Virus record (IMG/VR): IMGVR_UViG_3300030329_005426
Coordinates: 1 to 64,000 of that record
Strand: one strand, 5' to 3'
Origin: a virus
DNA length: 64,000 bases
Shown here: piece by piece, positions 18,600-57,198 of the stretch
Numbering within the stretch: the first letter of the stretch is position 1
Layout of the letters: each line of letters opens with the position of its first letter
Program-made: the position numbers and the translations under genes
Notes under the pieces: generated by a model
Database searches by the model: none
Told to the model about the DNA's origin: nothing
The model's input: the letters and a program-made list of their open reading frames with translations, nothing else

Positions 18600-19973
18600 T
18601 TACATAAGGTTGGAAATTTCAACCATGCGATAGTAGATGTTCTTCTTAGCGAAGGCAATTGCACCATCAGCATTTGTCGTAGCAAATGGGTTAGCTACCA
18701 TGCCATATCGGGTTTTAAAGCCGATCTTTGGCTGGAAGGTGTTTTCCCCAACTGCACGGACCATCTGCAGAGGTACGTATGGGCAGTAGAACAAGCCCGC
18801 ATCAAACGCACTGGAACCCTTATAACCGATCGTAGCATACTGCTTCCCGCTTGAGCTGGTGAAGTAAGGATCGATGTACACTTTAACCCGGCCGTTTGCA
18901 ACACCAGCGAATGTATTGCCTGTGTCATCAACGTTAAGGTTATTGGAAAGTGCTGGGGTGTAATCAAGTACGCCAGCCATCTGAAGAGCAGAAGCAACAT
19001 CAGATCCGCAGATCATTACGTTACCTTTACCCCTACGAGTCGACTTAGCAATTTGGTTAGCTTCACGCTCGATTTGGAAGATAAGTCCCTTGAAGCGCTC
19101 AACTGACCAACGGCCATTAGCATCTGTGTCAAGATCAAATGTACCCGCTGTGGTAGTATTGTCCTGAGCACCAGCTGTCGCGGTGTAGTTGATTGTGCGA
19201 ATTACTTCGCGGTTGATTTCGGAAAGAATTTCTGCCGAAAGGATGTTAGCTAGTTCAGTTTCAGCATCCAAACCGTGGATAGCTTTAAGATCCTGAGCAA
19301 GCTCCATCGTATACTCAGCTTTCAGAGCCCGGCTAACGGCTGTTACAGAAACCTTCTCGATGCTGAATGCCATTTCTTGGAAAGCATTCGTGGAAGCATC
19401 GCCAAGAGCTTCAGCCTCAGCAGTTGTCATACCTTGCGTAACGGTATATCCGGAACCAGAAGCACGATCCGTTGGATCATTTCCTGTTGCAGCAGTACCT
19501 GCACTACCGTCAACGGCCGCAATAGAAGCTGTATTACCAGCGGCGCTACCAGCGTGTGAAGTATTAGCTTCATTAAAGAGAGCTTCTGTACCACTCTGAT
19601 TAGTATAACGAGAGCGCATTGCAAAGATAAGTCCGGTTGGACCTGTCATTGGTTGCACACCGCATACGTCATAAGCGATGAGGTTTGGCATAGAACGGCG
19701 AACAAGCGAAATCAGCACTGGATCGAAGATGTCTACAGAACCATCACCTGCAGTCGAAGAAGAAGCACCCATAGCATTTGTGGGAGCCGCCTCACCGAGT
19801 AGGGATGGCATCTGATATCCACCAGAACCACTGGCTGCTTCAGCTGACGCACGTTCCTGGTTTTCTAAAAGAGTGGCGGTGACGGTGCGGCGATGAGCGT
19901 CGCCAATCTCAGGAAGATCGGGGTGCTCGAGCACTGGCTGCCACTTCTTTTGTAGTTCTTCAGTAACATACAT
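18600..19973 (-). CDS. 23: Major capsid protein gp23
   Basis: VQPMTGPTGLIFAMR, RALKAEYTMELAQDLKAIHGLDAE and FQPKIGFKTRYG motifs. Confidence 0.99.
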   Translation of the reverse strand: MYVTEELQKKWQPVLEHPDLPEIGDAHRRTVTATLLENQERASAEAASGSGGYQMPSLLGEAAPTNAMGASSSTAGDGSVDIFDPVLISLVRRSMPNLIAYDVCGVQPMTGPTGLIFAMRSRYTNQSGTEALFNEANTSHAGSAAGNTASIAAVDGSAGTAATGNDPTDRASGSGYTVTQGMTTAEAEALGDASTNAFQEMAFSIEKVSVTAVSRALKAEYTMELAQDLKAIHGLDAETELANILSAEILSEINREVIRTINYTATAGAQDNTTTAGTFDLDTDANGRWSVERFKGLIFQIEREANQIAKSTRRGKGNVMICGSDVASALQMAGVLDYTPALSNNLNVDDTGNTFAGVANGRVKVYIDPYFTSSSGKQYATIGYKGSSAFDAGLFYCPYVPLQMVRAVGENTFQPKIGFKTRYGMVANPFATTNADGAIAFAKKNIYYRMVEISNLM

Positions 19974-20015
19974 TTGATTTCTCCTTGTACTTTATATGAT
20001 CAGCCTTTGTCATAT

Positions 20016-22977: not shown

Positions 22978-24864
22978 TTACGTAAAGTATGGTACTTTAT
23001 ATGCAGTACCACCTATTGTTAGTACCAAATGACCGGCCGGATTAGCTACTACCGCGGCATTTAATGGCACAGAACCCTGTGCCGTAGTAACATCTGCTGT
23101 ATTACCTGACTTAACAGCTGTTGCAATAACACCATTTGCGACTTGAATTCTGTCTGATACGAGCAATCTGATAGCTGTATTAGTTGAAGTTAGATTAGTA
23201 TTGAGGTTACTAATAGCAGAATTAGTATTAGCTAATCCTTGGTTACTTAATAACCTAACCGCAGTATTAGTTGCCAATAGATTAGTATTGAGGTTACTAA
23301 TAGCAGAATTAGTATTAGCTAATCCTTGATTACTTAATAATCGTATTGCTGTGTTAGTTGCCAATAGATTAGTATTGAGATTACTAATTGCTAAGTTAGT
23401 ATTAGCCAACTGTACATCTGTTGACATCGATGCGATATAAGAATTGGTGTTAGCTAAAGCTGCTCTTTCTCTAGCACTAACTGTAGCGATATAAGAATTG
23501 GTGTTAGCTAAATTACTGGCTTGTTTTGCTTCTTGCGTATCAAGAGCAGATTGTGTATTTGTATTTAATAACCTGATTGCAGTATTAGTCGCAGTTAGGT
23601 TTGTATTAAGATTACTGATAGCCGCGTTAGTATTAGCTAATCCAGTATCTCCTCCTCCAGAAGAGGCAGCAATATAAGCGTTAGTATTAGCTAAAGCTGC
23701 TCTTTCTCTAGCGCTAACTGTAGCGATATAAGAATTGGTATTAGCTAAAGCTGATTGATGTGCAGAATTTGCAACTAAATTTGATGAAATCCAGGATCTT
23801 CCATAACCCCAATCATCAGTCCATTCTCTAGAAGCGAGTTGTTCAGTTGTATTTGAAAATAAACCAGTCGCATTTGCCGAAAGTGTAGTACTACCAAGTT
23901 TAATAGTAGCACCGGATAGATATAAATCTTTCCATTGTCTAGTAGAAGAACCTAAATCAAATGTATTGCCTGAAGCGGGGATAATAGCCTTTGTTTGGAG
24001 TGTAGTTGTGATATTATTACTTGAACCACCACCACCTTCGGCGTCTGCACCAATCCATTTACCTGTTGATGCTTGAAATTGTAAATACTTACCATCAACT
24101 TTAGCTGAGTCTCTATTTACATCATCAAGAAATTCGAGTCTTACTTCACCACCACCGCTTCCACCAGTAGCTACTATTCCTCGTTGGACTTGACGTCTAA
24201 TTTCAGTTTTAAATTTTTCGTGTTGTTCTATTATAGGTGTGATATCTGGAGAATTGCCGGGTTCGCCATCCATTCCAGGGCGACCGGGCTGTCCTTTTTC
24301 TCCCTTTGGTCCTACAGGACCTTGTTTACCAGCCGGCCCTTGATCACCCTTAGGGCCAACTTCTCCTCGTAGGCCAGGCACACCGTCGTTGCCCTTTTCT
24401 CCTTGTTCCCCTCTAGGGCCGCGAATTCCTTGTTCTCCCTTACTACCCGGTAATCCTTGAACACCAATGGGGCCGCGATCTCCTTTTTCTCCTTGCTGTC
24501 CTTGCTCTCCGAGTAATCCTCTTGGGCCGGGTTCTCCTTGCGATCCTTGTTCACCTTGTGGACCGGCAATACCTTCTGGCCCCTGAGGCCCGACAGGTCC
24601 AATTTCACCGATAAGTCCGTCATTACCCTTTTCTCCTTGAAGACCAATAGGCCCTTGTTCTCCTATAGGGCCTCTTTTTCCAATCTCACCTTGTATACCC
24701 CGTTCACCAGGAGTACCTTGAGGACCAATAGGTCCTTCTACAAGTGGTGGAATAATTATAGAATCTTCTAGTTCCGAAAGCAACTCTTTTTTTTGCTCTT
24801 TGAGTCGTTTTTCGGTAACACCAAGAACGGTAGCTAGAAGTTTTGCCTCATCTATCGTCTTCAT
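22978..24864 (-). CDS. Collagen triple-helix and ANTN coiled-coil fibre protein
   Basis: 54 uninterrupted Gly-X-Y triplets, [13 protein letters not shown] linker, LANTN repeats, C-terminal YKVPYF. Confidence 0.9.
23160..23760 (-). repeat. Intragenic repeats encoding LANTN modules (87-nt / 29-aa period)
   Basis: 23191-23253 is nearly identical to 23278-23340, and 23450-23510 to 23687-23750. Confidence 0.85.
24250..24735 (-). repeat. Collagen Gly-X-Y repeat (54 triplets)
   Basis: Counted directly from the translation, GPI through GNS. Confidence 0.95.
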
Positions 24865-27328: not shown

Positions 27329-29275
27329 TTAGAATTGTCCAACAACTTCAGAAAATTCTACACCAGTTCTTACCGCAACAAAGTTCAATTGAATAAAGTT
27401 AATTGAACGGGCAGGTTTAATGTAGATATCTCCTACAAATTCATTCCGGTCGATAATTTCGCCTGTGTTATTCGATTCATCACAAACAACCTTAAAGTCT
27501 GTAATGCCTCGGCGACCTTGTACATCCCTAAGGAAAGGCTCAACCATGTTACGGAATTGTGCACGGGTAAATGCATCGTTGAACTCGAAGAGAGTAAACT
27601 TCGCAGCTGTACTAATTGCTTTTTCGAGTACAATGAACAACCGGCGGACGTTAATCCGGTCGAATGCACTGGGTTTAGCTAACATTGTTTTATCACCGAA
27701 GAGGACTGTTCCTTGTCCTGCAAACGCGACAACTGGGTTAACACCCTTTTTATAAAGTTGATCTCGATGTGCTTTCTTTGGATTATATGCTAGTTTAACA
27801 ACGTTTTTAACATTACCGCGGTTATAACCAGCTGGCGACCACCATGCATCTCGGAGAAGATCAGTAGCAACCATTAAACCGGCTGTATCACCGTTTAGCG
27901 GTACATAGCGGTACAAATCGTTATATTTGTCATATTGGTATTTCCATCCAGAATCCATTACTGCGTAAGAGCTACTTGGAAGCAGATCTCGGAAGGCAAT
28001 AACATCATCTAGTTCCGCTGTTGCATATCCGCTATTGTTAACAACGTCTGCTCTGCGGGGTGAAATGCAAGCGACGCAGTCTTTACGGACTTCTGCGACA
28101 TTATTAATAACATCGAGAGCCAATGTCTGGTTAACTGTACCGAGAACCAGAAGCGAAACATCAACTTCTTCAGCATTCACAAACTTCTTATATCCGTTGA
28201 TATAATCAGCATTGCGTGGTGTATCTCCATCTTGGCCATTTACCAATGAACCACCTTGTGGAGCGGTTGCTGAAGCACCAAATGTAGTTCCTTTAGCAGC
28301 AGAACCAGCATTTGTCAGTTGTGTATCGTGGGCTGTCCACCAAAGATATTTAGACTGTTGGTTGACAACTTCTTTATAGTAATTTACAGAACCATCAGCG
28401 GTTTTTGCATCAGATGCCATAGAAAGTTTATAGTAGCGCTCAACAACTGTATTAGCTGTTCCTGTCCACTCACCATCTTCATCGGCTACAATAAGATGCA
28501 TTTCGTCATTAGATCCGCCACGGTTAGATACGAAATCGGATGTGCCTGGAGCATCATCAAATTCATTGTAGAACTCCCAGCGACGCTCACCGTGCCCGCC
28601 TGCTGCAGCTTCGGCATTATGAGAATTGCCTGAATATGCTTCTGACAATGTTAATTGACTTGAGTTAGCAACTGCACTAACAGTTCGTACTTCTTTATCG
28701 GGTCCTAGGACAATCTGATCCCCAACCGTTAGCTCTGTGTTAAATGTGGAGCTATTTAGACCTGTTACAGTTGCACTGTTTGCAGTAACAACAACATTAC
28801 CTGTTAATGCTGACGACCATGCTGCTGAACTACCACACATAGAAACGCGCAATGAATTACCCAACAATCCTGGATACTTAGCCGCAAACTCACCTACACC
28901 GCTAATTCCGGTAGCGTGATTTTCATTATAATCGTCTTCATCAGTAATAAGTGTAGTAGCGTTATTTGCTGAGGCCATATGAGCATTTTTAGCTTCCTGG
29001 GCGGCAGTGCCACTACGGTTTACTACACGTACAACGTGAAGAGCGTTGCCGTAAGACAGGAAGTTTTTGGCAGTAAAAAAGTCATTTGCTGTATTAGCGT
29101 TAGGCGATTGGAATTGGGATACCAATGTATCCTCAGAATCAATGAGAACCCGCTTTTCTACAGGACCCCAGCGAAAGTGCCCGGCAATGCCGCCTTCGGT
29201 TGTAGAAACGGCAGGAACAATCGTAGTAAGATCGATTTCACTTACATTGACTCCTGGTGAAACTTGAAAAGCCAT
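27329..29275 (-). CDS. 18: Tail sheath protein gp18
   Basis: SPGVNVSEIDLT, FDRINVRRLF and IKPARSINFIQLNF motifs. Confidence 0.98.
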   Translation of the reverse strand: MAFQVSPGVNVSEIDLTTIVPAVSTTEGGIAGHFRWGPVEKRVLIDSEDTLVSQFQSPNANTANDFFTAKNFLSYGNALHVVRVVNRSGTAAQEAKNAHMASANNATTLITDEDDYNENHATGISGVGEFAAKYPGLLGNSLRVSMCGSSAAWSSALTGNVVVTANSATVTGLNSSTFNTELTVGDQIVLGPDKEVRTVSAVANSSQLTLSEAYSGNSHNAEAAAGGHGERRWEFYNEFDDAPGTSDFVSNRGGSNDEMHLIVADEDGEWTGTANTVVERYYKLSMASDAKTADGSVNYYKEVVNQQSKYLWWTAHDTQLTNAGSAAKGTTFGASATAPQGGSLVNGQDGDTPRNADYINGYKKFVNAEEVDVSLLVLGTVNQTLALDVINNVAEVRKDCVACISPRRADVVNNSGYATAELDDVIAFRDLLPSSSYAVMDSGWKYQYDKYNDLYRYVPLNGDTAGLMVATDLLRDAWWSPAGYNRGNVKNVVKLAYNPKKAHRDQLYKKGVNPVVAFAGQGTVLFGDKTMLAKPSAFDRINVRRLFIVLEKAISTAAKFTLFEFNDAFTRAQFRNMVEPFLRDVQGRRGITDFKVVCDESNNTGEIIDRNEFVGDIYIKPARSINFIQLNFVAVRTGVEFSEVVGQF

Positions 29276-29359: not shown

Positions 29360-31021
29360 TCAAAGATCACCAAATGTATACCATCGTTCTGTTGGTTCTA
29401 GATTCTTATCTTCTCCCGCAATATCCCATCGCTGGCCGGTATTATCTACAATATGATTTTGTTGACCATCATCAATAATACCAAACGGCAGAATATCATC
29501 TTCTAACATGCGTAACTTCTCATTATATATCTTCTCACGGATGTCTATGTCGGTCATTTCCTTAAAGTACTCCTGGCGGACCAACCAAGAAAACAAAACT
29601 AAACACATAACCAAATCATCATGATGTCCTTCATCGGCCTCGTATGAAGAACCTTTTTGGATAAAACTAGATAATTCTGCAATAGTGTCAAAATCGTTAA
29701 CAATTAACTTATCATTTTCAATAAGATCTTTAAGATTTGAACATCCAGTTGATTTAACTGATTTTGTTGTCTTAACACCCATCTGAGTGCCTTTACCGAA
29801 ACCACCACCGACTTTTTGTCCAGCCCTTCCACGCATAGATGTAGAAAGAACGTTTTCATATTCTAAATCATGATGTAATATGTCAGCGACCTGCTGTCCT
29901 ATATCATTTAATTCAATCATAACAAACGCCTGATTATAAGCCAATCCAACATCTTTAATAGTGCTGGGATATATCATAGGCGAAATTTCATTAGATCTAA
30001 ATTTAGCCACTACTTTATATGGAAGGTTAGTAATATCAACAACAACAAAAGCACTATAATCTATTCCAACACCTCTTGATGTATCGGCAATAAGGCAGTA
30101 TACCCTATCTTTAATAGGCTCTTCATATATGTCAAAACTCCCTTGCCTTCTTATAGGATTCCAGAATGCCAGGCGCCTCAATATAGTTGAATTAATTAAT
30201 GTGTGTTGGCTACCTAAAAACTCACACTCAAATTCCTGAAGAAATTGTTCTTCTGATGTGTTAGCAATTGTCTGCTTTTTCCACTCTTCATTGCGATTAG
30301 GAACTTGTGTCCAATGAACTTCGATAGGAGTATATTCATTCCTACCTTCAGAAGCATCTATCCATAACTTATAAAAATGATTCATCCCATTTGGGGTTGA
30401 AACTATAATAACCTTTGATGTTTGGCCCGATGATATAGTAGGATAAACTGAACTAAAAAATTCATCCGCCATATTATTGCCAACGAATGCAAATTCGTCG
30501 AGAAAAATAAGATTATATGAACCACCTCGAATAGCACTTGATGAGGTAGCAGCAGCGACTATTTTAGATCCATTTTCGAGTTCTATATTACCTTTATTCC
30601 AAGTAACTACACCTTGCTGTAGCCACTTCGGTAAATATTCATAGGCCATCGTAATTTTAGATAATAGATCTCGTGCTAACGCTCCCTTATTAGCCAAAAT
30701 AGCAATATTTTGATTATCATGAAATAGTACCAACCATAGCATATACGCAGTAACGGTTGTACTTTTTCCTGACTGTCTCGGTAATTTACATATAGAAAAT
30801 CGTTTATTGACAAAGGTTGTAACCATATCCGATTGAAAATCATATAAATCGAATGGAATTAAGCCTTGATCAACATTAACAATTTGTATATACTGTCGAA
30901 TAAAATATTCACAATCATTAGCACATTTAATATATTCTTCTATCTGCTCTTGATCATATTCAACAGGAACATTAGTTCGTTTTAAATTGGGATTACCTAA
31001 GTAATTAACGCTTTCCACCAT
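29360..31021 (-). CDS. 17: Terminase large subunit gp17
   Basis: PRQSGKST, LDEFAF, STPNG and HDDLVM motifs. Confidence 0.98.
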   Translation of the reverse strand: MVESVNYLGNPNLKRTNVPVEYDQEQIEEYIKCANDCEYFIRQYIQIVNVDQGLIPFDLYDFQSDMVTTFVNKRFSICKLPRQSGKSTTVTAYMLWLVLFHDNQNIAILANKGALARDLLSKITMAYEYLPKWLQQGVVTWNKGNIELENGSKIVAAATSSSAIRGGSYNLIFLDEFAFVGNNMADEFFSSVYPTISSGQTSKVIIVSTPNGMNHFYKLWIDASEGRNEYTPIEVHWTQVPNRNEEWKKQTIANTSEEQFLQEFECEFLGSQHTLINSTILRRLAFWNPIRRQGSFDIYEEPIKDRVYCLIADTSRGVGIDYSAFVVVDITNLPYKVVAKFRSNEISPMIYPSTIKDVGLAYNQAFVMIELNDIGQQVADILHHDLEYENVLSTSMRGRAGQKVGGGFGKGTQMGVKTTKSVKSTGCSNLKDLIENDKLIVNDFDTIAELSSFIQKGSSYEADEGHHDDLVMCLVLFSWLVRQEYFKEMTDIDIREKIYNEKLRMLEDDILPFGIIDDGQQNHIVDNTGQRWDIAGEDKNLEPTERWYTFGDL

Positions 31022-31755: not shown

Positions 31756-31888
31756 TTTCAGCCTCGATTATTTCCTCTATATGTCTATGACATCCAACAC
31801 AGATATCTTGTTCATTGAGTGTACATGTTCCTATACATTGCGAATCATTCCGAACCTGTTCTATCGTCCGCTTCAATGGTGTTAACAT
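31724..31888 (-). CDS. DUF1289-like Cys-rich protein (not in ORF track)
   Basis: Manual translation ...SQCIGTCTLNEQDICVGCHRHIEEI... Confidence 0.65.
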   Translation of the reverse strand: MLTPLKRTIEQVRNDSQCIGTCTLNEQDICVGCHRHIEEIIEAENGSVRTTRNS

Positions 31889-34397: not shown

Positions 34398-34401
34398 CTG
34401 A

Positions 34402-45242: not shown

Positions 45243-48200
45243 TTATACCAATAACGCTATAGCTCGAATATCTTTCATTCGAGGTGGATTTGTTTTAGTA
45301 GAAGATAACATTACAACCTTAAGTCTAAAACGCTTATATCCTTTAAATGAAACACCTTGACTATTAGTATACTCTACTTCACCACCAGCTCCAGTTAATT
45401 TTGCTTCAGGAAAACTATACGTGTATTCTTTAAAGTCTGTTGTATCTTCATTGTCCGATACAATTGCTGAATTAGTATCTTGTTCTAATGCTTGCCAAGA
45501 TGCATCTTCCATTGTATCACTATCATCAGCATTAATTACTTTTGCATATACTTCAATTGTCGCTGATGCGTTTTTATATGCTGTGATATAAACTTTTAGA
45601 TCATCGCTATCTTGACCATCATCAAGTGTAACTGTCTTAGTAATATACCTGCATTGTGCATTACCGCCTGCCGTATTAGCTTCGCCGGTTGAATCGTTAT
45701 TGATAAGATTTTTAACAGTTGTTAAATCAAATCTTTCAACATCAACCGCAGGTGATACAGATACATCTTGACTGCTTAATGTTAGTTTATATTCAGCTGA
45801 TTTTTCACTATTGAGCGTTGCAATTTCATTACTTCTACTTAGAATATATCGTGCTCTGGCAGGAAAATGTGTATTCTCGTTTGCATTCATTGTTATAAAG
45901 TTTGCATCACGTGCTGATACTGATGTCGCCCATTTTGCAGCTGTAGTTAACGTCGCACCTTTAGGTACAAGTGCTTGTTGTTTTGTATGAACAGAATGAA
46001 CGGACAAATTATCTATTGTCGTAATTCTCGATGTTGCTTGAGAAACGCCCTGACCTTTAATCCATGTATTAGCCGCAAATGAACCTGATGTGTTTGCAAG
46101 ATGTAGATAATTATTACCTGCTGTCACTGTATCATAGAAATACACTTTACCTGTTGGTGTTGTAGTACTACTTAATGTTCCAGTAACGCCAGTTGTTAAA
46201 TTATTAGAATGTTTAAATGTAATAGTTTCACCATCACTAAACATTGTTGATGTAACGTTTGATACTCTTACAGTTGAAGATGATACATTTGTTACAAAAC
46301 CGTTCGCACCAGAGCTTCCGCCACTAGCATAAATTGTATTAGCTGCCGTATCCAATCCAGAAACGGTAGCGCCCATAGTCATGGTTGTTTCACCACGAAC
46401 CTCTTCGCCTGATGCATAAAACCCTGTTGATACATTATCGACGGATAGGTATTCTTTATTGGCGTTCTTAAGAATAGCTGTTCCATTTGTATTCTGGAAT
46501 GAGCAATAATATAGATTAAATTTAAGATCTTCTTCTTGGATAGGTGACCAAGTTTTATTATTCGATGAAGCATATAAGATACCCGAAAACGGCCTTTTTG
46601 AAATGCGTTCACCTGTGATTGTATCTTTACCACCTAGCCGTGCCACATAAGCTCTATAATCTGGGTTTTGGCCACCTGGCCTTACTACAAAAGCATATTC
46701 CATATTATTAAGTAAGAATACGGGTGTAGTGAAATAAACCGGTGTTGGTGCCGAACCATCTTCACTAATATTAACGTGTTCTGGTTCCACACCGATAATT
46801 CCGAAAGGAAGAATCTTATTTGTAATCGCTTGTGCAGATTGATCTACTTCTCGAATTTCACACCATACAGGTAATGTTTTATGTTTGGTTCTAAAGAACA
46901 AATCAATTTTAGATAAGAACACTCCACCGGCACTAAATGATCCCATTTGATCCCATGAATTAACATGGAATGTTTGAGCGAGTGGTTCATCACCACCATC
47001 ATCACCACAACCGTCACCGTCGCCATCCCAATCATCAAAAAATTGAGGAGGAGGTGGAAATGGAGTAAACGAAGATGATGTAGAACTAGATACTAATGTT
47101 CTCTGCTCTCGTACATCTTGGAAACCTAATGTTGCTTGTCGTGTTGATAGAACAGTTTCCTGTTTCTCTTGATGTAATCCCTGTGCTGTATATTGTGATT
47201 GTGCTGATGTTACAACCTGGCCTTCTTCATTACCATTATTAAATGAATCGGTTAACCTAAACATTTTTGTTCCGGTACGAAATTTTAGATTATCATCATT
47301 TGGCAATCTGAATATACCATAGAAGTTACCATCATCATCAGTTTGAAGTCTAGATCCCTCACTGCCTGTATTAGCATATTCACTATTAGCAGGGGTAATA
47401 TAAGCATTTACATCTACACTATCGAAGAAACCGTATATCCTAGTACTAGGCTTCATGCCACGCGCGGCAATTAAAACTGGCCGTGAGCGCATATAACCCA
47501 CAATATTCATATTAACTACTTTACTGCCTAATCTAGTTGTTTCTGTAGATTCATTAACCGTTGCAGTTACACCCGAACGTGTTTGATTTTGTGTAGTAGT
47601 TGTTGTTGTACTTGTAGTAATACCGGCTCCACTTGTAGATGAAGATGTGGATGAAGTTGATCCAGACCAAACCGTTTCCCAACTATTCCATTGAGTACCC
47701 CAAGCATTTGCCAAGTTAACCCAGTTCTGTGAGTTGTTATCAAAATCAACGGTAAGATCAGGTTTTGTAGTAGTATCAACCCATGTGTCTCCATCAGGTG
47801 AAAGAACTAATTGTCCGTTCCATCTCCACATTAAACCTGCTGTGTTTCGAATAGTCGAAGCATATTTTTGATTAATAACCTGATCATGAGAATATGGTAA
47901 TGTAATTAACTTGCCAGTCGTACCACTCATATCCATTGCAGTTTTCACTTCAGAGATTGTAGATGATGTGCTACTTGCACCTCCGACAGCACTTGCACCT
48001 GCAATAAATGTGCCGGTCACATCTTCGATATAAAGTCTTGTTCCGACCTGATACGTTAGTTTACCAGAAGCAGCACCGGCTGTAATTGTTTCGCCATTAG
48101 TATATGTACCTGAAGCTATTTCAATTCGAACATCCGATGGGTTAATCACAGTACCTGCACTATTAGCAGAATGATAAACCATATCAGAATTATCGATTTT

Positions 48201-51200
48201 AAAAGTAGGTCTAGCCTCACCGGCTGTAGGATCAATAGCGACCGCATAGTCTACATCAACAGTGTCGCCCACTCTATGCCCCGAGAAATTATCGACAAGG
48301 ATGCCATTTTTAAATCTATTATTACCAGCGACATCAGAAATAGCAAGATCACTTGCTTCTTTTTCAAGCAATGATAATGAAGTATAATATTCAAGACGTC
48401 CAATTCTACGATCAAGATCACCAATATCTCTCATTGTATATCGACGTTGATCCAGCTTTTCTAGTGTAATACCAAGATCCGCTCGGCCCGCTTTAGTAGC
48501 TTCAAGCATCGGTAATGACGGATATGGTGTAAGTCTTAGTTTAGCCAATACAATTGCATCACCAGGCTCTGGCGGGCCTGCCGGATGCAGTGAGGGTGAT
48601 CCCTTAACAACTTGTAATGACCCTGACTTGTTAAGACAAATTAAATCAACGCGTTTTAGATAATAAGAAAGGTCAACTGTAAAGCTTTCATTCGGTGGCA
48701 TAAAATATACACCGCCGCTTGGTTGATCTATACTTGTACTTGTTGCTGGGTTAACCGAGGCTGAACCGACTGATTGTGTAGCAGTAGCTGTATCAGCAAT
48801 ACGTGGCCTGATATCAAAGCTGTCTCGTAAACTAAATGATTTACCATCAGTTGGTGAAATATAAACTGGTATCTGTTCTGTCTGAATAGCATTTGTATTA
48901 GCACTATTGTTATCATCTATTGGATAACTATCAACACTAAAGTATCCAACACCTGTTGCAGTACTATGGGTAAAGTAACATAACTCTACCAAAAATACAT
49001 CATTAGATCCAACGGTATGTGTTCCTGTTCCCTTCTTCTTTAATTTAGCATGATCATAGAAATTGTCATTCTGCCCTGTAATTAATTCAAAAGAAGATGT
49101 AACATCGGTTCCTTGAGACGCCGATGTAAATAATGTATCATCTGTTCTAGCACGTACCGAAATAATTTTAAAAACATCTGAAAGGCCGAGATTCCAAGGG
49201 CCTGTGGTAGTCGCTGAATGCGATGAACATCTGATTTGAACATAATAACTTTTCCTAACAGTCTTAGCTTTTTCACGCCCGTCAACCTTTTTAAGCTCGG
49301 TCGTTACTGTAGCAGACATTGTACTATTAAGTGTTTCTTGGATATCAAAAGAAGCTGATGTGGTAGATCCAATGGTTACTGACCTATTACCATCTGCACC
49401 AACACCACCCATATCAATTACTTGTCCTGGCGTAAATTGTTTAGTAGCAGCTGCACCTGATACCGCACCAGATGGTTGCTGATGCAATGTCATACTAGTT
49501 GTACTTGCGATAGAATTAACAGTATACGTCGTTGCGTCGCCGACAAATTTAATTCGATCTCCAGTATTTAATTGGGTTGACATTGCAGTACCTGAACCAG
49601 TAACAGTAGTGCTACTAGCAGATGTTGTAAATGTTCCTGTTAATGTCGAGTTATTATTTCCAGAGGCATTTGTAACAACCCAAAAACCACCGCGCTTCTG
49701 TGTCGCATTCAGTGCACCTGTAGAAAACGGCCATTGCTCATCTGAGTTATCCGTAGTAATAGTAAAGGTACCATCTGTTGCAATAGTAACATCAAATTTG
49801 TAATGAAATTTAAAATTATTATCAAGTGAACCACCCGCGTCTCGTAATGTTTTAATATAAGAAGCAGGAATTGGATAAATGGCTCTATTAAAACTTGTCT
49901 CGTTTAATTTTGCAACACTATTTGTGAGAACGATATCGGCTCGAGCGTCAGCAGTAGATGATTGATTATAAACAATAGAACGTGTATTACTAAAAGCGGC
50001 ATTAGACATTTTGATATCATATAGATATGCAGATGCCGATCCATCATTCGATCCTTTAGTACCGGAAGAATGTTGTAATGATCTTATCCGTGCATGACCA
50101 ATAACAGCACCGGCTGGTCCTGTTGTACTAACTTCTCCATTACTAACTGCATTCGAGGGAGCGTTTCTAAGCTCAACCTGTGCATGTGAATCTGTTGGAA
50201 AGTTACCTACTACTTCATCAACGGTTACATAGTTACCGTAGTTAGCAGGAATAGTAAGTGCTTCAATATCTTCGGTGCTATTTGCTTTTTCAACCCTAAC
50301 TCTGCGTGTTGAAATAAGTTCTAAATCATATCCGCTAACATATGCTTTACCTGGTTCGACAGATACTGCAAGTAAGTTTGTATTACCTGGATTAGTTGAA
50401 TCAGTAGAAAGAAATAACCCACCATTGTTTCCATCTTTAAGATGTTCGGAAACCTTTACTTGTAATCCACGAACAACATAATCACCGGATTCGTCAAATG
50501 TTCTTCCAGCCATATAATCTCTAATCTTATTATATGGTGGTTTTATTGTATCGTTACTTACTATTTTACCATTTCGTAATTCTGCGATCTGAATAAATGT
50601 ATTAGCGGCTGTATTAGCCTCATCATATGTCATTAACTTGGTAGATAGTTTTAATCGGTTAGCACCTGGTGCTGCATAGTTATATGCGCCTTGTGCGGGA
50701 TCAAGTAACGTAGTATCTAATTCAGATGATACGATATCTTCGACAACTTTAAAACCAACACGGCCTGTATAATGTCGTCCGTATTTTTGAAGAATAATTG
50801 TTTGTTCTTCTGATCTAATAAAGTGATCTTTGGCATATAGAACACCTTCACCAACGGTCATCATTATACCATTACCAGTGGCCTGCGAAACTGTACTAAT
50901 TAAATTTGCCTGATACACTGGCGATGTATTAGATGAAATCTGTTCCCCAGCATTAAATACATTAGAAGCACCATTTGAGCTGCCTTTAGTGTATCTAATA
51001 TACATTGTTTTAAAATCAGGATCAGATGCTTCGGCACCTTCAACTACTCTAGTAACTTCTGCTTGTGCGCCTGAAGTTCCGCCTGTAATTAATGAACCTA
51101 CGAAATTACTTAATGTAACTGTTGATCCGTTTGATGAAGTATCTCTGACTCGAACAAATTGAATCTGAGGTTCCAGAACTGTCTCACCACCACTTATAAA

Positions 51201-51401
51201 TTTACCTTCCTTGAACATATGTGAACCAAAGCGATCGATCTGATTCTGCAAAATAGATTGCATCTGCGTAAGCTCACGAGCCTGCACAGCCATTCCGGGA
51301 CGGAATAACATTCGATGGAAGTTTTTCGACTCATCAAAATCATCATAATATGGGTCGACGTTAAAGTCGGTACTGAGCGAAGAATTATTAGATTGAGACA
51401 T
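45243..51401 (-). CDS. Large baseplate/fibre-anchor structural protein (DUF4815 / VrlC-like)
   Basis: PYYDDFD...FRPG.AVQARELTQ.Q, RTFDESGDY, RYTMRDIG, RFKNGILVDNF and PLAQTF motifs. Confidence 0.85.
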   Translation of the reverse strand: MSQSNNSSLSTDFNVDPYYDDFDESKNFHRMLFRPGMAVQARELTQMQSILQNQIDRFGSHMFKEGKFISGGETVLEPQIQFVRVRDTSSNGSTVTLSNFVGSLITGGTSGAQAEVTRVVEGAEASDPDFKTMYIRYTKGSSNGASNVFNAGEQISSNTSPVYQANLISTVSQATGNGIMMTVGEGVLYAKDHFIRSEEQTIILQKYGRHYTGRVGFKVVEDIVSSELDTTLLDPAQGAYNYAAPGANRLKLSTKLMTYDEANTAANTFIQIAELRNGKIVSNDTIKPPYNKIRDYMAGRTFDESGDYVVRGLQVKVSEHLKDGNNGGLFLSTDSTNPGNTNLLAVSVEPGKAYVSGYDLELISTRRVRVEKANSTEDIEALTIPANYGNYVTVDEVVGNFPTDSHAQVELRNAPSNAVSNGEVSTTGPAGAVIGHARIRSLQHSSGTKGSNDGSASAYLYDIKMSNAAFSNTRSIVYNQSSTADARADIVLTNSVAKLNETSFNRAIYPIPASYIKTLRDAGGSLDNNFKFHYKFDVTIATDGTFTITTDNSDEQWPFSTGALNATQKRGGFWVVTNASGNNNSTLTGTFTTSASSTTVTGSGTAMSTQLNTGDRIKFVGDATTYTVNSIASTTSMTLHQQPSGAVSGAAATKQFTPGQVIDMGGVGADGNRSVTIGSTTSASFDIQETLNSTMSATVTTELKKVDGREKAKTVRKSYYVQIRCSSHSATTTGPWNLGLSDVFKIISVRARTDDTLFTSASQGTDVTSSFELITGQNDNFYDHAKLKKKGTGTHTVGSNDVFLVELCYFTHSTATGVGYFSVDSYPIDDNNSANTNAIQTEQIPVYISPTDGKSFSLRDSFDIRPRIADTATATQSVGSASVNPATSTSIDQPSGGVYFMPPNESFTVDLSYYLKRVDLICLNKSGSLQVVKGSPSLHPAGPPEPGDAIVLAKLRLTPYPSLPMLEATKAGRADLGITLEKLDQRRYTMRDIGDLDRRIGRLEYYTSLSLLEKEASDLAISDVAGNNRFKNGILVDNFSGHRVGDTVDVDYAVAIDPTAGEARPTFKIDNSDMVYHSANSAGTVINPSDVRIEIASGTYTNGETITAGAASGKLTYQVGTRLYIEDVTGTFIAGASAVGGASSTSSTISEVKTAMDMSGTTGKLITLPYSHDQVINQKYASTIRNTAGLMWRWNGQLVLSPDGDTWVDTTTKPDLTVDFDNNSQNWVNLANAWGTQWNSWETVWSGSTSSTSSSTSGAGITTSTTTTTTQNQTRSGVTATVNESTETTRLGSKVVNMNIVGYMRSRPVLIAARGMKPSTRIYGFFDSVDVNAYITPANSEYANTGSEGSRLQTDDDGNFYGIFRLPNDDNLKFRTGTKMFRLTDSFNNGNEEGQVVTSAQSQYTAQGLHQEKQETVLSTRQATLGFQDVREQRTLVSSSTSSSFTPFPPPPQFFDDWDGDGDGCGDDGGDEPLAQTFHVNSWDQMGSFSAGGVFLSKIDLFFRTKHKTLPVWCEIREVDQSAQAITNKILPFGIIGVEPEHVNISEDGSAPTPVYFTTPVFLLNNMEYAFVVRPGGQNPDYRAYVARLGGKDTITGERISKRPFSGILYASSNNKTWSPIQEEDLKFNLYYCSFQNTNGTAILKNANKEYLSVDNVSTGFYASGEEVRGETTMTMGATVSGLDTAANTIYASGGSSGANGFVTNVSSSTVRVSNVTSTMFSDGETITFKHSNNLTTGVTGTLSSTTTPTGKVYFYDTVTAGNNYLHLANTSGSFAANTWIKGQGVSQATSRITTIDNLSVHSVHTKQQALVPKGATLTTAAKWATSVSARDANFITMNANENTHFPARARYILSRSNEIATLNSEKSAEYKLTLSSQDVSVSPAVDVERFDLTTVKNLINNDSTGEANTAGGNAQCRYITKTVTLDDGQDSDDLKVYITAYKNASATIEVYAKVINADDSDTMEDASWQALEQDTNSAIVSDNEDTTDFKEYTYSFPEAKLTGAGGEVEYTNSQGVSFKGYKRFRLKVVMLSSTKTNPPRMKDIRAIALLV

Positions 51402-51421: not shown

Positions 51422-52969
51422 TTAGAATTTTACTACAATCTTGATGTCTTCAGTCTGATCCGAAGCCCTCTGAATAGATCCCCTGTTTTCTACGTATAAG
51501 ATTTTACCCGTATACGGTTTAAGTGATCCAGACGATACGGAAGCTACAGTAGCTGTAATACTCGAACCGCCCCCTGTAATTGTTTCCGTCGGTGAATATG
51601 TTCCGTCCACATTCGTTACTTTCAATGTGCCAGCTGTGTTTGCTGAATTAGTATTGGCGAAACTTACTACTCGACCTTTTGCATTAGAGGTACCACCGGT
51701 TAGAAGTTCATCTGATGTAAATTTACCTGAACCGGAAACACCGGTTAATGTTAAAGTTGTTGCTTGGTTATATGCTGAAGCTGTTGCTGCGCTACCGTTA
51801 GCTAACATTGGATCTTTAACGATACCAAAGACTCGGAAATCCTGTGCTGTTGGGAATGTATCACCCTCAGAACCAGACAACTGGATATTGAGCATGACAT
51901 TATATCCAAACAATTCGCTGACAGCGTTTGAACCGTGACCACCTGGAGGTGATATACGTGGCGAGGCAGTGGCACCTGTTCCATGAGAGCTATTCGCACT
52001 TATAGTTACGTTAGCTGTTGCATATCCAGAGCCAGTTGATATCATTGAAATCTTATTAACCGTATTTCCGATACCACCTTCTACCACGTTAGCATATGCT
52101 TCGGCACCCGACCCACTACCATTAACAGTAATTTTAGGTCCAATTACATATGTTGAATCAGCATCTGGTGAAACTGAATATCCAGATGTTAATGTAACCG
52201 TTCTGGAAGATCCTGTATAATCAACAATCTCTTTAGCCTGACCGGATCCAGTACCACCTGAAATATACATAACACTGCCGTTGTAAATATTATCTGTCGA
52301 ACTTGCATTAGTATTAACAACCATGACTGAAGTATTCGTTACAGAGAACATTGTTCCTACATGACCGGCATAACTATTACCTCTTGCATCCATATCAATT
52401 ACGTCAATGGCTCCGTTCGAGGCTGCTGTTGCAACAGTCGAGTCCGTCTTAACAGGAATATAACCGGTTGTTAGGAATTTAAGAATATCAGCAGTGGAAA
52501 TGGAATACATATATTTCCATTGATATCCATCAGCTGTGGCTAGTGTACTTGTTGATGTACCCGTTGGTTGAACGGTACTATTCGCACCGTGCACAGAACT
52601 ATTCGCACCATTATTATATAAACACTTATAAACATTATAATCACTAGAAACAACAAAGAAAGTATTAGATACCAAGCTGGCATTAGTGTTATCATAGTCG
52701 GTATAAAAGGTATTATTAGCCCAATCAGTACGGGGGACGGCGTAAGTGATATCAGCTGTTTGAACCTTTTTCATCGCAAGCATTGTTTTCCAAATATCAT
52801 ATTCAGTCGCTTGAACCGAATCAACCGGTACATCTGGATTAGCTTCATCGCCCCATGCTACGGAACGACCTATGAAAAAATACATACGAGTTTCATCAGA
52901 TTCACTGAATGCCTCGTAAAATTGTTCCGCATTATGCTTACGGAAATTGGATGTGACTATACCGGCCAT
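51422..52969 (-). CDS. 8: Baseplate wedge protein gp8
   Basis: YNVYKCL.N, DGYQWKYMY and ENR..I.R..DQTEDIKIVVKF motifs. Confidence 0.88.
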   Translation of the reverse strand: MAGIVTSNFRKHNAEQFYEAFSESDETRMYFFIGRSVAWGDEANPDVPVDSVQATEYDIWKTMLAMKKVQTADITYAVPRTDWANNTFYTDYDNTNASLVSNTFFVVSSDYNVYKCLYNNGANSSVHGANSTVQPTGTSTSTLATADGYQWKYMYSISTADILKFLTTGYIPVKTDSTVATAASNGAIDVIDMDARGNSYAGHVGTMFSVTNTSVMVVNTNASSTDNIYNGSVMYISGGTGSGQAKEIVDYTGSSRTVTLTSGYSVSPDADSTYVIGPKITVNGSGSGAEAYANVVEGGIGNTVNKISMISTGSGYATANVTISANSSHGTGATASPRISPPGGHGSNAVSELFGYNVMLNIQLSGSEGDTFPTAQDFRVFGIVKDPMLANGSAATASAYNQATTLTLTGVSGSGKFTSDELLTGGTSNAKGRVVSFANTNSANTAGTLKVTNVDGTYSPTETITGGGSSITATVASVSSGSLKPYTGKILYVENRGSIQRASDQTEDIKIVVKF

Positions 52970-53038: not shown

Positions 53039-55327
53039 TTACCTATGTCCTGTGTGATCAAGTGTACTTACTGCTGCCATTATGTTATTTGAGGCCCCTG
53101 TTTGACCCGGCATATTATTAGCAATATACATTGTTCCGAGGAATACATCACCTTCCTGGAAGTCTCTAGTAAGGAACAATTTAGTATTACTGACGACGTT
53201 ATTAACAGTGTAAATTGTCGAATTACCAATCGCAGTCTGTGATAACATGCCACGAATGATAATAGATTGACCAGCGGTAGGTCTTCGACTACCGAAGGTA
53301 AACGTAACATTTGGATTAGATGTATTAGAAGCCAATACCATATCCATATCTTTTGTCAGGCTGCTAATTGAACTAGTAAGATAATTACTGATTGTATTAG
53401 TACCTGTACTGCTAATTAAGAATGTATTCTTAATTAATATACTATGTCGCAGAGGTCGTCCTGCTCTATGATGTGCAGTCCAAAGCATACTATTACTTGA
53501 ATCAATTGTGCTTACTGTTGTATCAATTGTCTTAGCAATTTGTAAGTTAACACCTGTAGCAGATGTTCGGCTAAAGTATGTTGCTGGAACTGTAACAGGT
53601 ACAGTATTAGCAATCTGCTGAAGATTGACAAATGATACATCACTAACAATAGCACCAATTTGTGATTGTGTATATGTTTCAACACTATCAGATACAATAA
53701 CAGGTACGTTGAGTGTATTTTCATATACAAGTTCTAGGTCTGGTCCATAAACTTGTGTTGATATTGTAGAAGCATCAAGCTCAGCTTCAACCTGTAATTG
53801 ACCAAATATTTTTTGGCCAGCAGGATGAATTAATTCTTTAACTAAATTTTTATAAGTATCTACAAATTGTGTGCTCTTAACAACATAACTATATTCTTGA
53901 TAATAGAAGTTATCTTGTAGTTTATTATTATAAGACAAAAATCCTTTGGTATCTACATATCTACCCGGATGAGTTATCAAACCAGTAACAAGTGGTAATC
54001 CTTTTCCGGCTTGGGTTCCGGCGCGATCACTATTAGCAATTGATGCAGTATTGTACTTATCATACGAGGAGCCCACGGAATTAAGACGTATGGCTGTAAT
54101 AGCACCCGGAATATTTGCAACAGTTACAACAGCATTTTGTCCTTTAATGCCTCCGTTAGGATCTTGCAATTCTTTATCAGCAATCTCTTGGTCAACTATA
54201 GTCGCTGTCGGTAAATAATTATATCCAAACCCGACATCAGTAACGGTAATTCCACTTATAGTTCCTGTTTCTATTTCTGCAAACTGCAATGCAGATGCTA
54301 ATGTAGAAGATACATTTGCCGCGGCTATATTAGCTTCTAAAACTTGTGTGTTAGATACACCTGAAGCAAATACTGGCCCGGAATTTAATGGTACATCTTT
54401 AACTGCTTCGATTGTTGTTGTTCCAAAAGTTACATTTGATGTATTTGAAATTCCATTAATTGTAAACGATGCCCCGAGACCACTACCACCAGCAATTGTA
54501 ATTACGCTATTACCTAATCTATACCCACTACCACCTGCGCGCAAAGTAAAATTAATAGATGATGTATCAGATGTTCTTATAACGACACCATTAGCACCAG
54601 TACCAGATGTATCACTTACTATTTGAATAACATCCCCAACCTGATGATAACCACCGCCTTGTGTAACATTAAATCCGCTTAAAGGGCCTGTTGTTGAAAA
54701 TACTGTTCCGTTAATAGTATTTGAAGCATTGCGAACTAACTCACCATCATTAAATGTTCCGTTAATAGCAGATAGAAACATTTCATCAACCTGCACACCA
54801 AGTTCAGATGTTTTTTCCACGCGCTCTACTTTAGCATGGGCACCTGATTCAGCACCGTATATAATAAGACCATCTAATTCAGCGCGATCACCTGTTCCCG
54901 GTGATGATACACGAATAGATGTTTCTTGAATCCATCGACCGTCACTTGTCCGAAGCATATCAACACCCGGATAATAAAAATCGATCTCCTCATTATAAAT
55001 CATTCTAAACAATAATCTATAAGCGGCTTGTGTGCCCTTAGCACGATACAAATCTTTAATATGCTTAACGAGTAATCGTTTATCTGCTAATGCAGTTTGG
55101 GGTATTCTATCCATTACTTCTGATTTGAAATATTGGATAAATTGATCTAAAGTATTATCGATATCTCTATAATCTAATAAATTTTTGGCACGTTCAGTGG
55201 CATTACCGCTTTGTTCCATCCATTCATAATACGCTTCTATAAACTTTTGAAATTTAGGAGCGTCTTCTTGGATGAAATCAGGTAGCTGTTCTGCAATCAG
55301 TGCTGACGTGATATTATTAGTAGCCAT
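53039..55327 (-). CDS. 7: Baseplate wedge initiator gp7-like
   Basis: F.EAYYEWME, Y.AKGT, LQDNFYYQEYSY and HPAG motifs. Confidence 0.8.
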   Translation of the reverse strand: MATNNITSALIAEQLPDFIQEDAPKFQKFIEAYYEWMEQSGNATERAKNLLDYRDIDNTLDQFIQYFKSEVMDRIPQTALADKRLLVKHIKDLYRAKGTQAAYRLLFRMIYNEEIDFYYPGVDMLRTSDGRWIQETSIRVSSPGTGDRAELDGLIIYGAESGAHAKVERVEKTSELGVQVDEMFLSAINGTFNDGELVRNASNTINGTVFSTTGPLSGFNVTQGGGYHQVGDVIQIVSDTSGTGANGVVIRTSDTSSINFTLRAGGSGYRLGNSVITIAGGSGLGASFTINGISNTSNVTFGTTTIEAVKDVPLNSGPVFASGVSNTQVLEANIAAANVSSTLASALQFAEIETGTISGITVTDVGFGYNYLPTATIVDQEIADKELQDPNGGIKGQNAVVTVANIPGAITAIRLNSVGSSYDKYNTASIANSDRAGTQAGKGLPLVTGLITHPGRYVDTKGFLSYNNKLQDNFYYQEYSYVVKSTQFVDTYKNLVKELIHPAGQKIFGQLQVEAELDASTISTQVYGPDLELVYENTLNVPVIVSDSVETYTQSQIGAIVSDVSFVNLQQIANTVPVTVPATYFSRTSATGVNLQIAKTIDTTVSTIDSSNSMLWTAHHRAGRPLRHSILIKNTFLISSTGTNTISNYLTSSISSLTKDMDMVLASNTSNPNVTFTFGSRRPTAGQSIIIRGMLSQTAIGNSTIYTVNNVVSNTKLFLTRDFQEGDVFLGTMYIANNMPGQTGASNNIMAAVSTLDHTGHR

Positions 55328-57198
55328 TAGATTATTACCGTATTAACACCTGTTTCGTTTATCTGGGTAGTAGTTCCGGTAGTTGTTATTTCTTTTACAA
55401 TACTTTCAGTCTTTTTTGTAACATTATTAATAATTGTTATTTCTGAATCAGCAAATAAAGGTATTTGATTTCGTACAGTAAATATATCCGATAAATTAGG
55501 TTTTACATCAACCTTAAGATCCGAACCCGAAATAGCAGTGATTAAGATACTTTCAAGTGTAATTAATCCGCTACTATAATCAACCAAGCCGGCTGCTTCA
55601 TTAGTAACTACTTTTGTAGATCCAGTAGAGAAATAATAAAAATTAATAATACCGTTACCATCATCTTCAAGATATGTTCCCGACCTACCATTATAAGTAA
55701 AGCTTGAAGAAACAACAGCACCTAAGTGCCCCGCATGTGGATTTGAAATAGAATTATTAAAAGGTAATTTATATGTTGATGTCAATTCTGCTGATGGTTG
55801 GAAACGCTTCTGTATTTTTAGATCTACTGCAACGGATACAATACTTGTTTCTTTATCTTCTAACGTTCTCATAAAATCAGATTTATAAAAAGCATCACCG
55901 AAATTACCTAGCTTATCTGTTTCATAATCTTGAATTGCTGTTTGTAGTCTAGTAGATATTTCACCTGCAGATAGCGCTGTCTGTTCCGGATTATATCTAA
56001 TTGTTACTTGAGGAACAATATAAACATAAGATGGATCCACAAATTCTGGATCAATCGACATAACATTTCTTTCTTCTAACCAAATTTTAAGGGCATCTTT
56101 ACGTGCAGAAGATAGTTCGTTACCTATTTTTGGCTTAGCACTGATATAAACTTTACCGTAGATTGGCGGATCATTTTCTTCACCACCCCATACCCTAACG
56201 GTTTGAAAATCTGGATTGGCATTAAGAATTAATTGTTTATAATCATTTGCCGTAACTGCTCGATTCTGTGTTTCATAATTCTTAGGTGCATTAAATTTAA
56301 TTGAAGAAACTGTCTCAACATTTGCACCTCCCTCAGCCGCAGTATTAACCGTTATATCATAATTAGAAAACCCAGTTCCTGTTACAGGATTTAATCCGAT
56401 AAGATCTGGACCGGTAAAGACAGCAGCACCGTTTGTTTCTGTACCAGCACAAATTCTATATGAAGCCTGGATAATATTACCATCAGATGGCTTTTTACCT
56501 AATACACCATCACCGAAATTAATTTCATACTGTCCGTCTAAATTTTCCTGAAGGAAAAATACGGTACTAGAGGCCCCAACGCGCGTTAAATCATTAGCTG
56601 TTTTATATAATTCGAAAGCACTATTACTACTAGATTCAATTACTTTGACTACAATACTTCTTGTATCAACCATCTTATTAGGAATAATATATCTTTCTGG
56701 GGTCGTAGAATTAACTTCCCATTCATGAGCAAAGTGTCTTCCTTCTACTACATCAATTGTAGCCGTATACCCTGCAGCGGCATTTACATTATATGATTGT
56801 TCGGTGACAAAAATATAATCATTACCATCGATCGTAGAAGTAAAAGAAGTATTAGCTGGTATAGTAACCGAGTCTGGTGTACCTGGCGGATTGATATCAA
56901 TTAATAGCTGTGCTGTAGCTCCTTGTGCCGATGTAGGAGTATAACCCAACATCTTAGCCCGTGAAACAACATTATTACGAATCAGAGCGCTATCCAAATA
57001 CATTTCATTCGCCACTTGATTTAGATAGACGGAATTATAATAAGTATTGTAAGCCAGGACATCTAACAATTGAGCCATGGCAGAACCTTCAAAATCATAA
57101 TCTAAGAACTCCGTCTGCGCTGACAGAAAGGATTTTAGATTACTTTTAATAGACGGAAAGTTCGTACTAGTTATTTTTAATGCTGCGTTCGCTGCCAT
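55327..57198 (-). CDS. 6: Baseplate wedge protein gp6
   Basis: DYDFEGS, LAYNTYY, FGDGVLG, QNRAVTANDY and WGGEENDPP motifs. Confidence 0.95.
   Translation of the reverse strand: MAANAALKITSTNFPSIKSNLKSFLSAQTEFLDYDFEGSAMAQLLDVLAYNTYYNSVYLNQVANEMYLDSALIRNNVVSRAKMLGYTPTSAQGATAQLLIDINPPGTPDSVTIPANTSFTSTIDGNDYIFVTEQSYNVNAAAGYTATIDVVEGRHFAHEWEVNSTTPERYIIPNKMVDTRSIVVKVIESSSNSAFELYKTANDLTRVGASSTVFFLQENLDGQYEINFGDGVLGKKPSDGNIIQASYRICAGTETNGAAVFTGPDLIGLNPVTGTGFSNYDITVNTAAEGGANVETVSSIKFNAPKNYETQNRAVTANDYKQLILNANPDFQTVRVWGGEENDPPIYGKVYISAKPKIGNELSSARKDALKIWLEERNVMSIDPEFVDPSYVYIVPQVTIRYNPEQTALSAGEISTRLQTAIQDYETDKLGNFGDAFYKSDFMRTLEDKETSIVSVAVDLKIQKRFQPSAELTSTYKLPFNNSISNPHAGHLGAVVSSSFTYNGRSGTYLEDDGNGIINFYYFSTGSTKVVTNEAAGLVDYSSGLITLESILITAISGSDLKVDVKPNLSDIFTVRNQIPLFADSEITIINNVTKKTESIVKEITTTGTTTQINETGVNTVII

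Follow-up and report, generated by a model that had tools for sequence, protein, structure and literature searches.

The DNA analysed here (the window) covers the initial 64 kb of the 154,113-bp IMG/VR virus record IMGVR_UViG_3300030329_005426 (G000; estimated completeness 85%), a T4-like phage with almost all of its genes on the minus strand. The region under study, positions 18600-57198, carries structural genes of the particle, and the tripeptide Ala-Asn-Thr (ANT) and its close variants recur across their products. An earlier reading of this DNA (the original prediction) had described a virion-wide [AS]N[ST] motif and proposed it as a glycosylation sequon; every peptide that it quoted was found in the gene it had named. 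Its gene names were borne out by PHROG and Pfam searches, which recover gp23, gp22, gp20, gp19, gp18, TerL, TerS, gp15, gp14 and gp13, then gp5, gp6, gp8, gp25 and a wedge protein resembling gp7, and also a gp38-like adhesin, several fibres and a 2052-amino-acid (aa) DUF4815 protein. Open reading frames (ORFs) were taken as the greedy longest-ORF set of the record (n = 210), so some start codons may sit too far upstream. By identity of the sheath protein, the closest cultured relatives are Ochrobactrum phage OC (54%) and Stenotrophomonas phage DLP6 (53%), followed by pelagiphages (50-51%) and Sinorhizobium phage phiM12 (49%). We looked for psbA in this phage and found none.

Excess and exact form of the motif

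Against an expectation from per-protein composition, [AS]N[ST] occurs 70 times in the region (24.1 expected) and 25 times in the other 177 ORFs of the 154-kb genome (27.0 expected), so the enrichment persists once composition is corrected for. ANT alone is found 38 times in the region against 6.2 expected (z = 12.7), which makes it the first of 8000 tripeptides there; it is also top-ranked over the whole genome. Twelve of the 38 belong to a paralogous LANTN repeat in two fibre genes (22978-24864 and 42321-43493). These copies, the only sites that are in-register copies of one repeat unit, reflect repeat paralogy and are not independent sites. With the repeat masked, 26 dispersed ANT remain, without a common extended context, compared with 5.5 in whole-protein shuffles and 5.8, 6.6 and 7.4 +/- 2.5 in shuffles within blocks of 30, 12 and 6 residues; no shuffle gave more than 15. 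A, N, S and T abound in the structural proteins, and the sites cluster in loops rich in them (6 pairs at most 10 aa apart versus 1.6 expected), but the notion that these loops yield the motif without selection can practically be dismissed, as the global and local shuffles rule out a composition artefact and the permuted orders NAT, ATN and TNA are not enriched to the degree of ANT.

Relatives were sampled as 80 IMG/VR loci around gp8 homologues, which we call rich at an observed-to-expected ratio of at least 2 and poor at a ratio of 1.1 or less. In the region of this phage the enrichment is 4.8x for ANT, 3.0x for ANS and 2.3x for SNT, while SNS is depleted (3 versus 6). In ten other rich lineages ANV reaches 3.6x, equal to ANT at 3.6x, so a hydroxyl group is not required. 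The controls ADT (0.7-0.8x), AQT (1.0x) and TNA (0.7-1.7x) stay low, and no enrichment was found for ADT, AGT, AQT, AST or ANA. Nor is the classical sequon N-x-[ST] enriched, with 118 observed and 121-125 in shuffles. The residue preceding Asn-Thr is over-represented when it is Ala (3.4x) and less so when it is Ser (1.7x) or Gly (1.6x), with Thr at 0.7x and Pro at 0.3x. The strongest single signal is the dipeptide AN, top-ranked both here (103 versus 60) and in the ten other rich lineages (656 versus 356); NT comes second (89 versus 65 here, 1.3-1.4x across both sets). Under a first-order Markov model, ANT is still in excess, at 26 versus 14.2 (1.8x) here and 1.4x in the other lineages. These counts demonstrate an excess that is order-specific and Asn-specific, and the motif, which we refer to as the tag, is best written A-N-[T/V/S]. 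The Ala-Asn core of the predicted [AS]N[ST] motif stands, with Ser a weak member at both the first and the last position. Proteins of the outer tail, the baseplate and the fibres of this phage bear AN[TVS] about four times as often as expected.

Protein level versus nucleotide level

In this genome ANT is written GCT-AAT-ACA far above the codon-usage prediction, and a nucleotide signal was considered for this reason: selection could act on GCTAATAC, read along the late region's sense strand, as a DNA or mRNA site, with ANT merely its translation. The 8-mer GCTAATAC has 27 copies in the Ala-Asn-Thr frame on the minus strand between window positions 19568 and 56856, including copies in the non-virion genes of the region, and elsewhere it occurs once in the sense frame and four times on the other strand. 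Of the 26 dispersed ANT, 20 spell Ala as GCT, a codon with a background share of 43% (P = 4e-4). However, no more than one copy of GCTAATAC is out of frame or intergenic, and the 8-mer is not enriched in T4, S-SSM5, Syn9, P-SSM2 or HTVC008M. Among 280 dispersed ANT in the 80 loci of relatives, GCT is used 105 times (109.6 expected), which is the background rate, and in ten lineages ranging from 31% to 54% GC the tripeptide is spelled in the usual codons of each lineage (GCC-AAC-ACC in a GC-rich one). The GCT bias at ANT is thus real in this genome alone, and relatives are without it. Since the ANT codons of relatives follow their own usage, the tag is a protein feature across the clade, and a nucleotide site as its source is very improbable and largely refuted for the clade.

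Sites lie in loops and variable segments and are under selection

Identity to relatives is 0.25-0.33 at the sites compared with a mean of 0.42, which places them in poorly conserved segments, as had been predicted. In an AlphaFold model of gp8 (pLDDT 85.7), all six sites are in loops or at strand ends; two of them belong to a loop modelled with low confidence, and another two lie on either side of a hairpin. Across 73 homologues of the sheath, every AN[TS] site lies within residues 60-330, the variable part of the protein, which in the T4 gp18 structure forms the protruding outer domains.

Within these variable segments the sites themselves are kept over short distances. All four sheath sites are retained in relatives with 80% and 76% identity despite changed flanks, and all six gp8 sites are retained in a 72% identical relative (L179). 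In relatives at 50-92% identity, conservation of the motif residues exceeds that of the three residues flanking them on each side by 0.10-0.17, an excess seen in three of four independent reference sets, whereas control xNx tripeptides differ from their flanks by 0.00-0.01. Individual sites are not conserved in deeper relatives, and an alignment of the giant DUF4815 protein places the sites of this phage, of DLP6 and of phiM12 for the most part in separate columns, which rules out a set of inherited fixed sites. A density that is kept high while sites turn over and base composition varies therefore indicates continuing selection for the motif. Loop location and selection with turnover are demonstrated by these comparisons, and Ala-Asn-Thr/Val/Ser is a selected, protein-level tag of loops and variable segments. 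Selection for an Asn-centred site on particle proteins, as originally proposed, is supported by the specificity for order and Asn, conservation above the flanks, the different columns in different lineages, and the contrast between orthologues of rich and poor lineages (3.5x versus 0.6x; see below).

Which proteins carry the tag

The features of the region, together with the sugar-nucleotide and glycosyltransferase genes discussed below, are listed in Table 1. In gp14, both sites fall within an insertion missing from T4, S-SSM5, Syn9 and HTVC008M. The site in TerL is an old conserved x-N-T that reads KNT or RNT in other phages.

Table 1. Tag-bearing and related features (window coordinates unless stated; site positions are residue numbers)
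Feature	Coordinates	Strand	Family matches and sites
Epimerase/reductase, DegT-family enzyme and Gmd (GDP-6-deoxyhexose genes)	7973..11038	-	Pfam
gp23 major capsid protein	18600..19973	-	One ANT, at aa 136
LANTN(S/A)(Y/A)I(A/S) tandem repeat, 8 copies	23215..23772	-	Within collagen-like fibre gene 22978-24864; Pfam Collagen, PHROG tail fibre
gp18 tail sheath	27329..29275	-	PHROG tail sheath; ANT at 60, 274; ANS at 165, 203
TerL and TerS	29360..32441	-	One ANT each; judged background
gp14 neck protein	33555..34409	-	ANT at 125; ANS at 131
Enzyme cassette of the fibre module: three proteins, non-structural or unknown	39218..41607	-	One ANT each
Fibre protein	42321..43493	-	4 LANTN repeats; dispersed ANT at 39, 197; ANS at 60, 284
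Fibre protein	43512..45002	-	ANT at 39, 236; N-terminus paralogous to that of 42321-43493
Giant 2052-aa DUF4815 protein (baseplate or fibre network)	45243..51401	-	Pfam DUF4815; 8 ANT, 4 ANS
gp8 baseplate wedge protein	51422..52969	-	Pfam Phage-Gp8; SNT at 101; ANS at 122, 129, 325; ANT at 438, 443
gp7-like baseplate wedge protein	53039..55327	-	Pfam Baseplate_wedge; 8 [AS]N[ST] sites including one ANT
gp6-like wedge protein	55327..57198	-	Pfam Gp6-like; ANT at 115
GT4-family glycosyltransferase	91469-92488 of the 154-kb record, outside the window		Divergent, without a close named family

To find which protein families carry the tag, we computed AN[TVS] ratios in 16 complete T4-like genomes, where rich genomes are those that carry the GT4-family glycosyltransferase (GT) gene described below and poor genomes those without it. 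The giant DUF4815 protein has 3.8x expectation in rich genomes (87/23.2) and 0.9x in poor genomes (20/21.3); the corresponding values are 3.9x and 0.5x for gp8, 2.5x and 0.8x for the sheath, 1.9x and 1.0x for gp7, 1.8x and 1.2x for gp6, and 2.7x and 2.1x for the capsid protein gp23. In GT-positive genomes no excess was found in the tube, protease, scaffold, gp15, gp25, gp5, TerL or TerS, and the hub is likewise without the tag. The tail tube (26684-27298) and its 72 homologues (L001-L080) contain no ANT at all, against 7.9 expected by composition. Because these inner proteins lack the excess, the tag belongs to the tail exterior, the baseplate rim and the fibres and not to the whole virion. 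Describing the motif as virion-wide was too broad, and a glycan shield over the entire particle does not agree with untagged inner parts and a capsid excess that is not clade-specific.

The fibre gene at 22978-24864 encodes collagen (G-X-Y) repeats followed by the eight LANTN repeats, and it has the portal gene on one side and the small head genes on the other, an unusual location for a fibre.

Distribution among T4-like phages

Over whole genomes, ANT is observed 44 times against 12.8 expected in this phage, 34 against 13.3 in DLP6, 23 against 14.1 in phiM12 and 26 against 16.4 in OC. The tag is not a general trait of T4-like virions, as there is no such excess in T4 (16/11), S-SSM5 (19/20), Syn9 (18/18), HTVC008M (13/15), Mosig (14/13) or Melnitz (15/15). 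The trait is bimodal, with 40 of the 80 gp8 loci rich and 26 poor. Taken together, the orthologues of gp8, gp7, gp6 and the giant protein contain 234 AN[TVS] against 67.5 expected (3.5x) in ten rich lineages and 26 against 42 (0.6x) in ten poor lineages. In the gp8 tree, the poor loci form a clade with the cyanophages, pelagiphages and Melnitz, with three further exceptions: OC and two loci nested among the rich ones (L202 and L208), which are fragments and thus uninformative as to GT status. These comparisons demonstrate a clade restriction, and the tag is confined to one branch of T4-like phages, which infect mainly Proteobacteria and whose cultured members include Stenotrophomonas phage DLP6, Sinorhizobium phage phiM12, Caulobacter phage Cr30, Rhizobium phage RHph_I1_18 and Ochrobactrum phage OC.

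The baseplate orthologues of poor lineages (loci L207-L258) have an excess of their own, in SG (468 versus 288, 1.63x) and in [ST][GA]S (188 versus 112, 1.69x). This fits the view that sister clades may favour different short motifs.

A GT4-family glycosyltransferase tracks the tag

The leading candidate for a reader of the tag is the GT4-family gene in Table 1. Among the 16 complete T4-like genomes, it is present in all seven rich ones and absent from the other nine; the ratios range from 2.6x to 5.4x in GT-positive and from 0 to 1.5x in GT-negative genomes, with T4 at 4 versus 1.4. For five of these genomes, we predicted the tag status from the GT status before counting. The two carrying the gene, Cr30 and RHph_I1_18, were rich (ANT 4.7x and 4.1x), and ACP17, X1 and V45v66, which lack it, were not (1.1x, 0x and 1.0x). 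Only four genes of this phage occur in at least two of DLP6, phiM12, OC and G006 (a complete IMG/VR genome) while having no counterpart in six poor genomes: the GT4 gene, the gene for a 310-aa protein next to it, one for a 282-aa protein and a gp7-like paralogue. Co-distribution of the tag with an enzyme is demonstrated by these data. Co-occurrence with glycosyltransferase and sugar genes, a check proposed with the original prediction, holds for this one GT4 gene; the sugar genes are not shared.

The GT4 gene and the Lys-rich 310-aa protein are adjacent, upstream of rnh, at 90468-92488 of the record (L122:6468-8488) and in phiM12 and G006, and both are restricted to motif-rich genomes. For the 310-aa protein we found no Pfam or NCBIfam family and no match in Atlas; its model is poor, with a pLDDT of 62.7, and the only sequence match in the Protein Data Bank is a marginal one to phosphoglycerate kinase (3uwd_A, E = 0.0086). 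A search of the 154-kb record for a GT2 homologue found none, and a Maf-like transferase candidate at 88010-88579 was rejected, having no Pfam match at E <= 0.01.

Glycosylation and its alternatives

Orthologues in the sister branch have the same folds and lack the tag, from which we infer that some factor encoded by the phage lineage must read it. Our leading reading, a tentative one, is that AN[TVS] loops are glycosylated through the GT4 enzyme. The tag would be carried in exposed loops of the sheath, the neck, the fibres and, at the baseplate periphery, of gp8, gp7, gp6 and the giant DUF4815 protein. The divergent GT4 would act on these proteins in the cytoplasm, before or during assembly, with Asn as the acceptor to which a sugar would be attached, and tails and fibres decorated with sugar would be the outcome. 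In its broadest form, in which a large T4-like branch puts sugars on the Asn of these loops in sheath, baseplate and fibres while sister clades rely on other tags, so that bacterial viruses would possess a new N-glycosylation system, cytoplasmic and directed by a sequon, the proposal is somewhat unlikely.

Several observations weigh against glycosylation by the GT4. GT-positive genomes come out as paraphyletic in a tree of concatenated gp23, gp20, gp18 and gp17, which calls for two changes; with just two transitions of tag and enzyme, shared ancestry stays a rival explanation of their association. In this phage some 34 kb separate the gene from the structural module and rnh lies beside it; in phiM12 and DLP6 it is found next to nrdC/rnh in the early and DNA-metabolism region, a position that would suit a DNA-modifying or envelope-modifying enzyme too. 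GT4 enzymes are mostly polysaccharide builders, and no known protein N-glycosyltransferase was found in the 154-kb record, where STT3 (PF02516) and GT41 (PF13844) had no match. The capsid is not specifically tagged, its excess occurring in both clades. In this phage alone, non-virion proteins of the region contain 5 ANT versus 0.7 expected, and the ANT in the three cassette proteins (Table 1) speak against a strictly surface-bound tag.

It is also possible, though doubtful, that the tag is a structural idiom, in which Ala-Asn plus a beta-branched residue serves the folding or stability of loops and strand ends, is inherited, is renewed as fibrous and beta-rich domains evolve in the ordinary way, and remains unmodified. 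In two fibres ANT forms the centre of LANTN, a true structural repeat; the hydroxyl is dispensable, ANV being enriched as much as ANT; the gp8 sites are found at strand ends and in hairpin loops; ANV is enriched also in non-structural proteins of this genome, HTVC008M and DLP6; and the capsid excess is common to both clades. However, sister-clade orthologues with the same folds do without the tag (0.6x versus 3.5x), and two of the gp8 sites are in a low-confidence flexible loop. Asn is not exchangeable with Asp, and Gly replaces the motif Asn no more often than other Asn (9.4% versus 9.8%), so simple roles in Asx turns or left-handed turns do not fit; Asn standing in for Gly at left-handed turns is hinted at by a few columns and is not supported overall.

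A tag read by some other lineage-specific partner, through a different Asn modification (such as 2-oxoglutarate (2OG)-Fe(II) hydroxylation or deamidation), docking of a decoration or assembly protein, or contact with host surface glycans, is unlikely. The same evidence for selection and clade restriction applies to it, and the phage encodes several 2OG-Fe(II) oxygenases as well as the enzyme cassette in its fibre module. However, 2OG oxygenases are abundant in motif-poor pelagiphages too (Mosig annotation). The cassette, rejected as a tag reader, has no homologues in the four genomes compared and is not among the genes shared with DLP6, phiM12, G006 and OC. Apart from the GT and its neighbour, no candidate with the right distribution was found.

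Comparison with known systems

Were Asn glycosylation by the GT4 correct, a close parallel among tailed phages would be in mycobacteriophages, whose virions, as Freeman and colleagues reportedly described in 2023 in Cell Host Microbe, are glycosylated by phage-encoded glycosyltransferases. The modification there is said to be O-linked, on the C-termini of capsid and tail-tube proteins, with the transferase genes beside the structural genes. In both cases a tailed phage would decorate its own particle proteins with phage-encoded transferases; here, by contrast, the tube is without the tag, the candidate GT is in the early region and Val freely replaces Thr. The GT41 enzymes HMW1C and ApNGT would resemble the proposed system in working in the cytoplasm, following a sequon and glycosylating Asn of long surface fibres, but this phage has no N-x-[ST] excess and the record no GT41. 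Oligosaccharyltransferase systems (PglB, AglB or STT3) differ in sequon and enzyme alike, and PF02516 has no match in the record.

The original prediction had drawn on chloroviruses, in which capsid glycans of PBCV-1 Vp54 are attached to Asn in NTXT or NIPG (PMC9614988), non-canonical sites that are glycosylated in the cytoplasm by virus-encoded enzymes (PMC9614988, PMC5408694). In both systems, Asn directly precedes Thr or another beta-branched residue instead of lying in N-x-S/T, and both viruses encode glycosyltransferases and sugar-nucleotide genes, of which only the GT4 is common to other motif-rich phages here. The enzyme linking the first sugar to Asn is not known in chloroviruses either. 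The sites differ in being on the capsid there and on tail, baseplate and fibres here, where they are Ala-Asn-centred. A chlorovirus-like sequon was not borne out: a second Thr, two places past the first, follows 0 of the 26 dispersed ANT (2.1 expected), and the ten other rich lineages have 19 such sites versus 14.7. With Thr absent from the fourth position, only the order of Asn then a beta-branched residue resembles the chlorovirus sites.

If the tag is a modification site, Gram-negative tailed phages would coat their tails and fibres by sequon-directed means, the pair of enzyme and sequon would be new, and there would be a bearing on host recognition, on resistance to proteases and antibodies, and on phage therapy. 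Five cultured phages carry the tag, and one of them, DLP6, infects Stenotrophomonas maltophilia, which bears on therapy. Even a purely structural role would leave unexplained a three-residue idiom that toggles between sister clades in the same folds.

Sugar-nucleotide genes and other accessory genes

The GDP-6-deoxyhexose genes of this phage had been proposed as a GDP-colitose operon that feeds the modification. No comparable homologue of the epimerase/reductase, DegT or Gmd was found in any of the 10 genomes compared, the sole match being a weak one (24%, DegT family) in the GT-negative Mosig. The record also encodes KdsA and a Capsule_synth-like (KpsS-like) protein. None of the other rich genomes has kdsA, the KpsS-like gene or the genes of colitose type, so these are not a general sugar source, and we rejected them as partners of the tag across the clade.

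The enzyme cassette inside the fibre module spans 35195-42254 and ends at the gp38-like adhesin. It contains a class I/II aminotransferase, an alpha/beta hydrolase, a PP-loop ATPase with a QueC-like N-terminus and several unknowns. At least four 2OG-Fe(II) oxygenase genes are encoded, as in pelagiphages, at 5064-5918 and 11295-11909 of the window and at 118862-119668 and 149224-149868 of the record. Outside the window, genes for the TRAP transporter proteins DctP and DctM (72867-75340 of the record; L121:8867-11340) adjoin those for a radical SAM protein and KdsA (77359-78171 of the record). Genes at 221-1015, 4378-5091 and 7041-7514 of the window, for QueC, GTP cyclohydrolase I and a QueD-type PTPS, constitute a 7-deazaguanine (preQ0-type) pathway, which suggests a modified guanine in the DNA of this phage.

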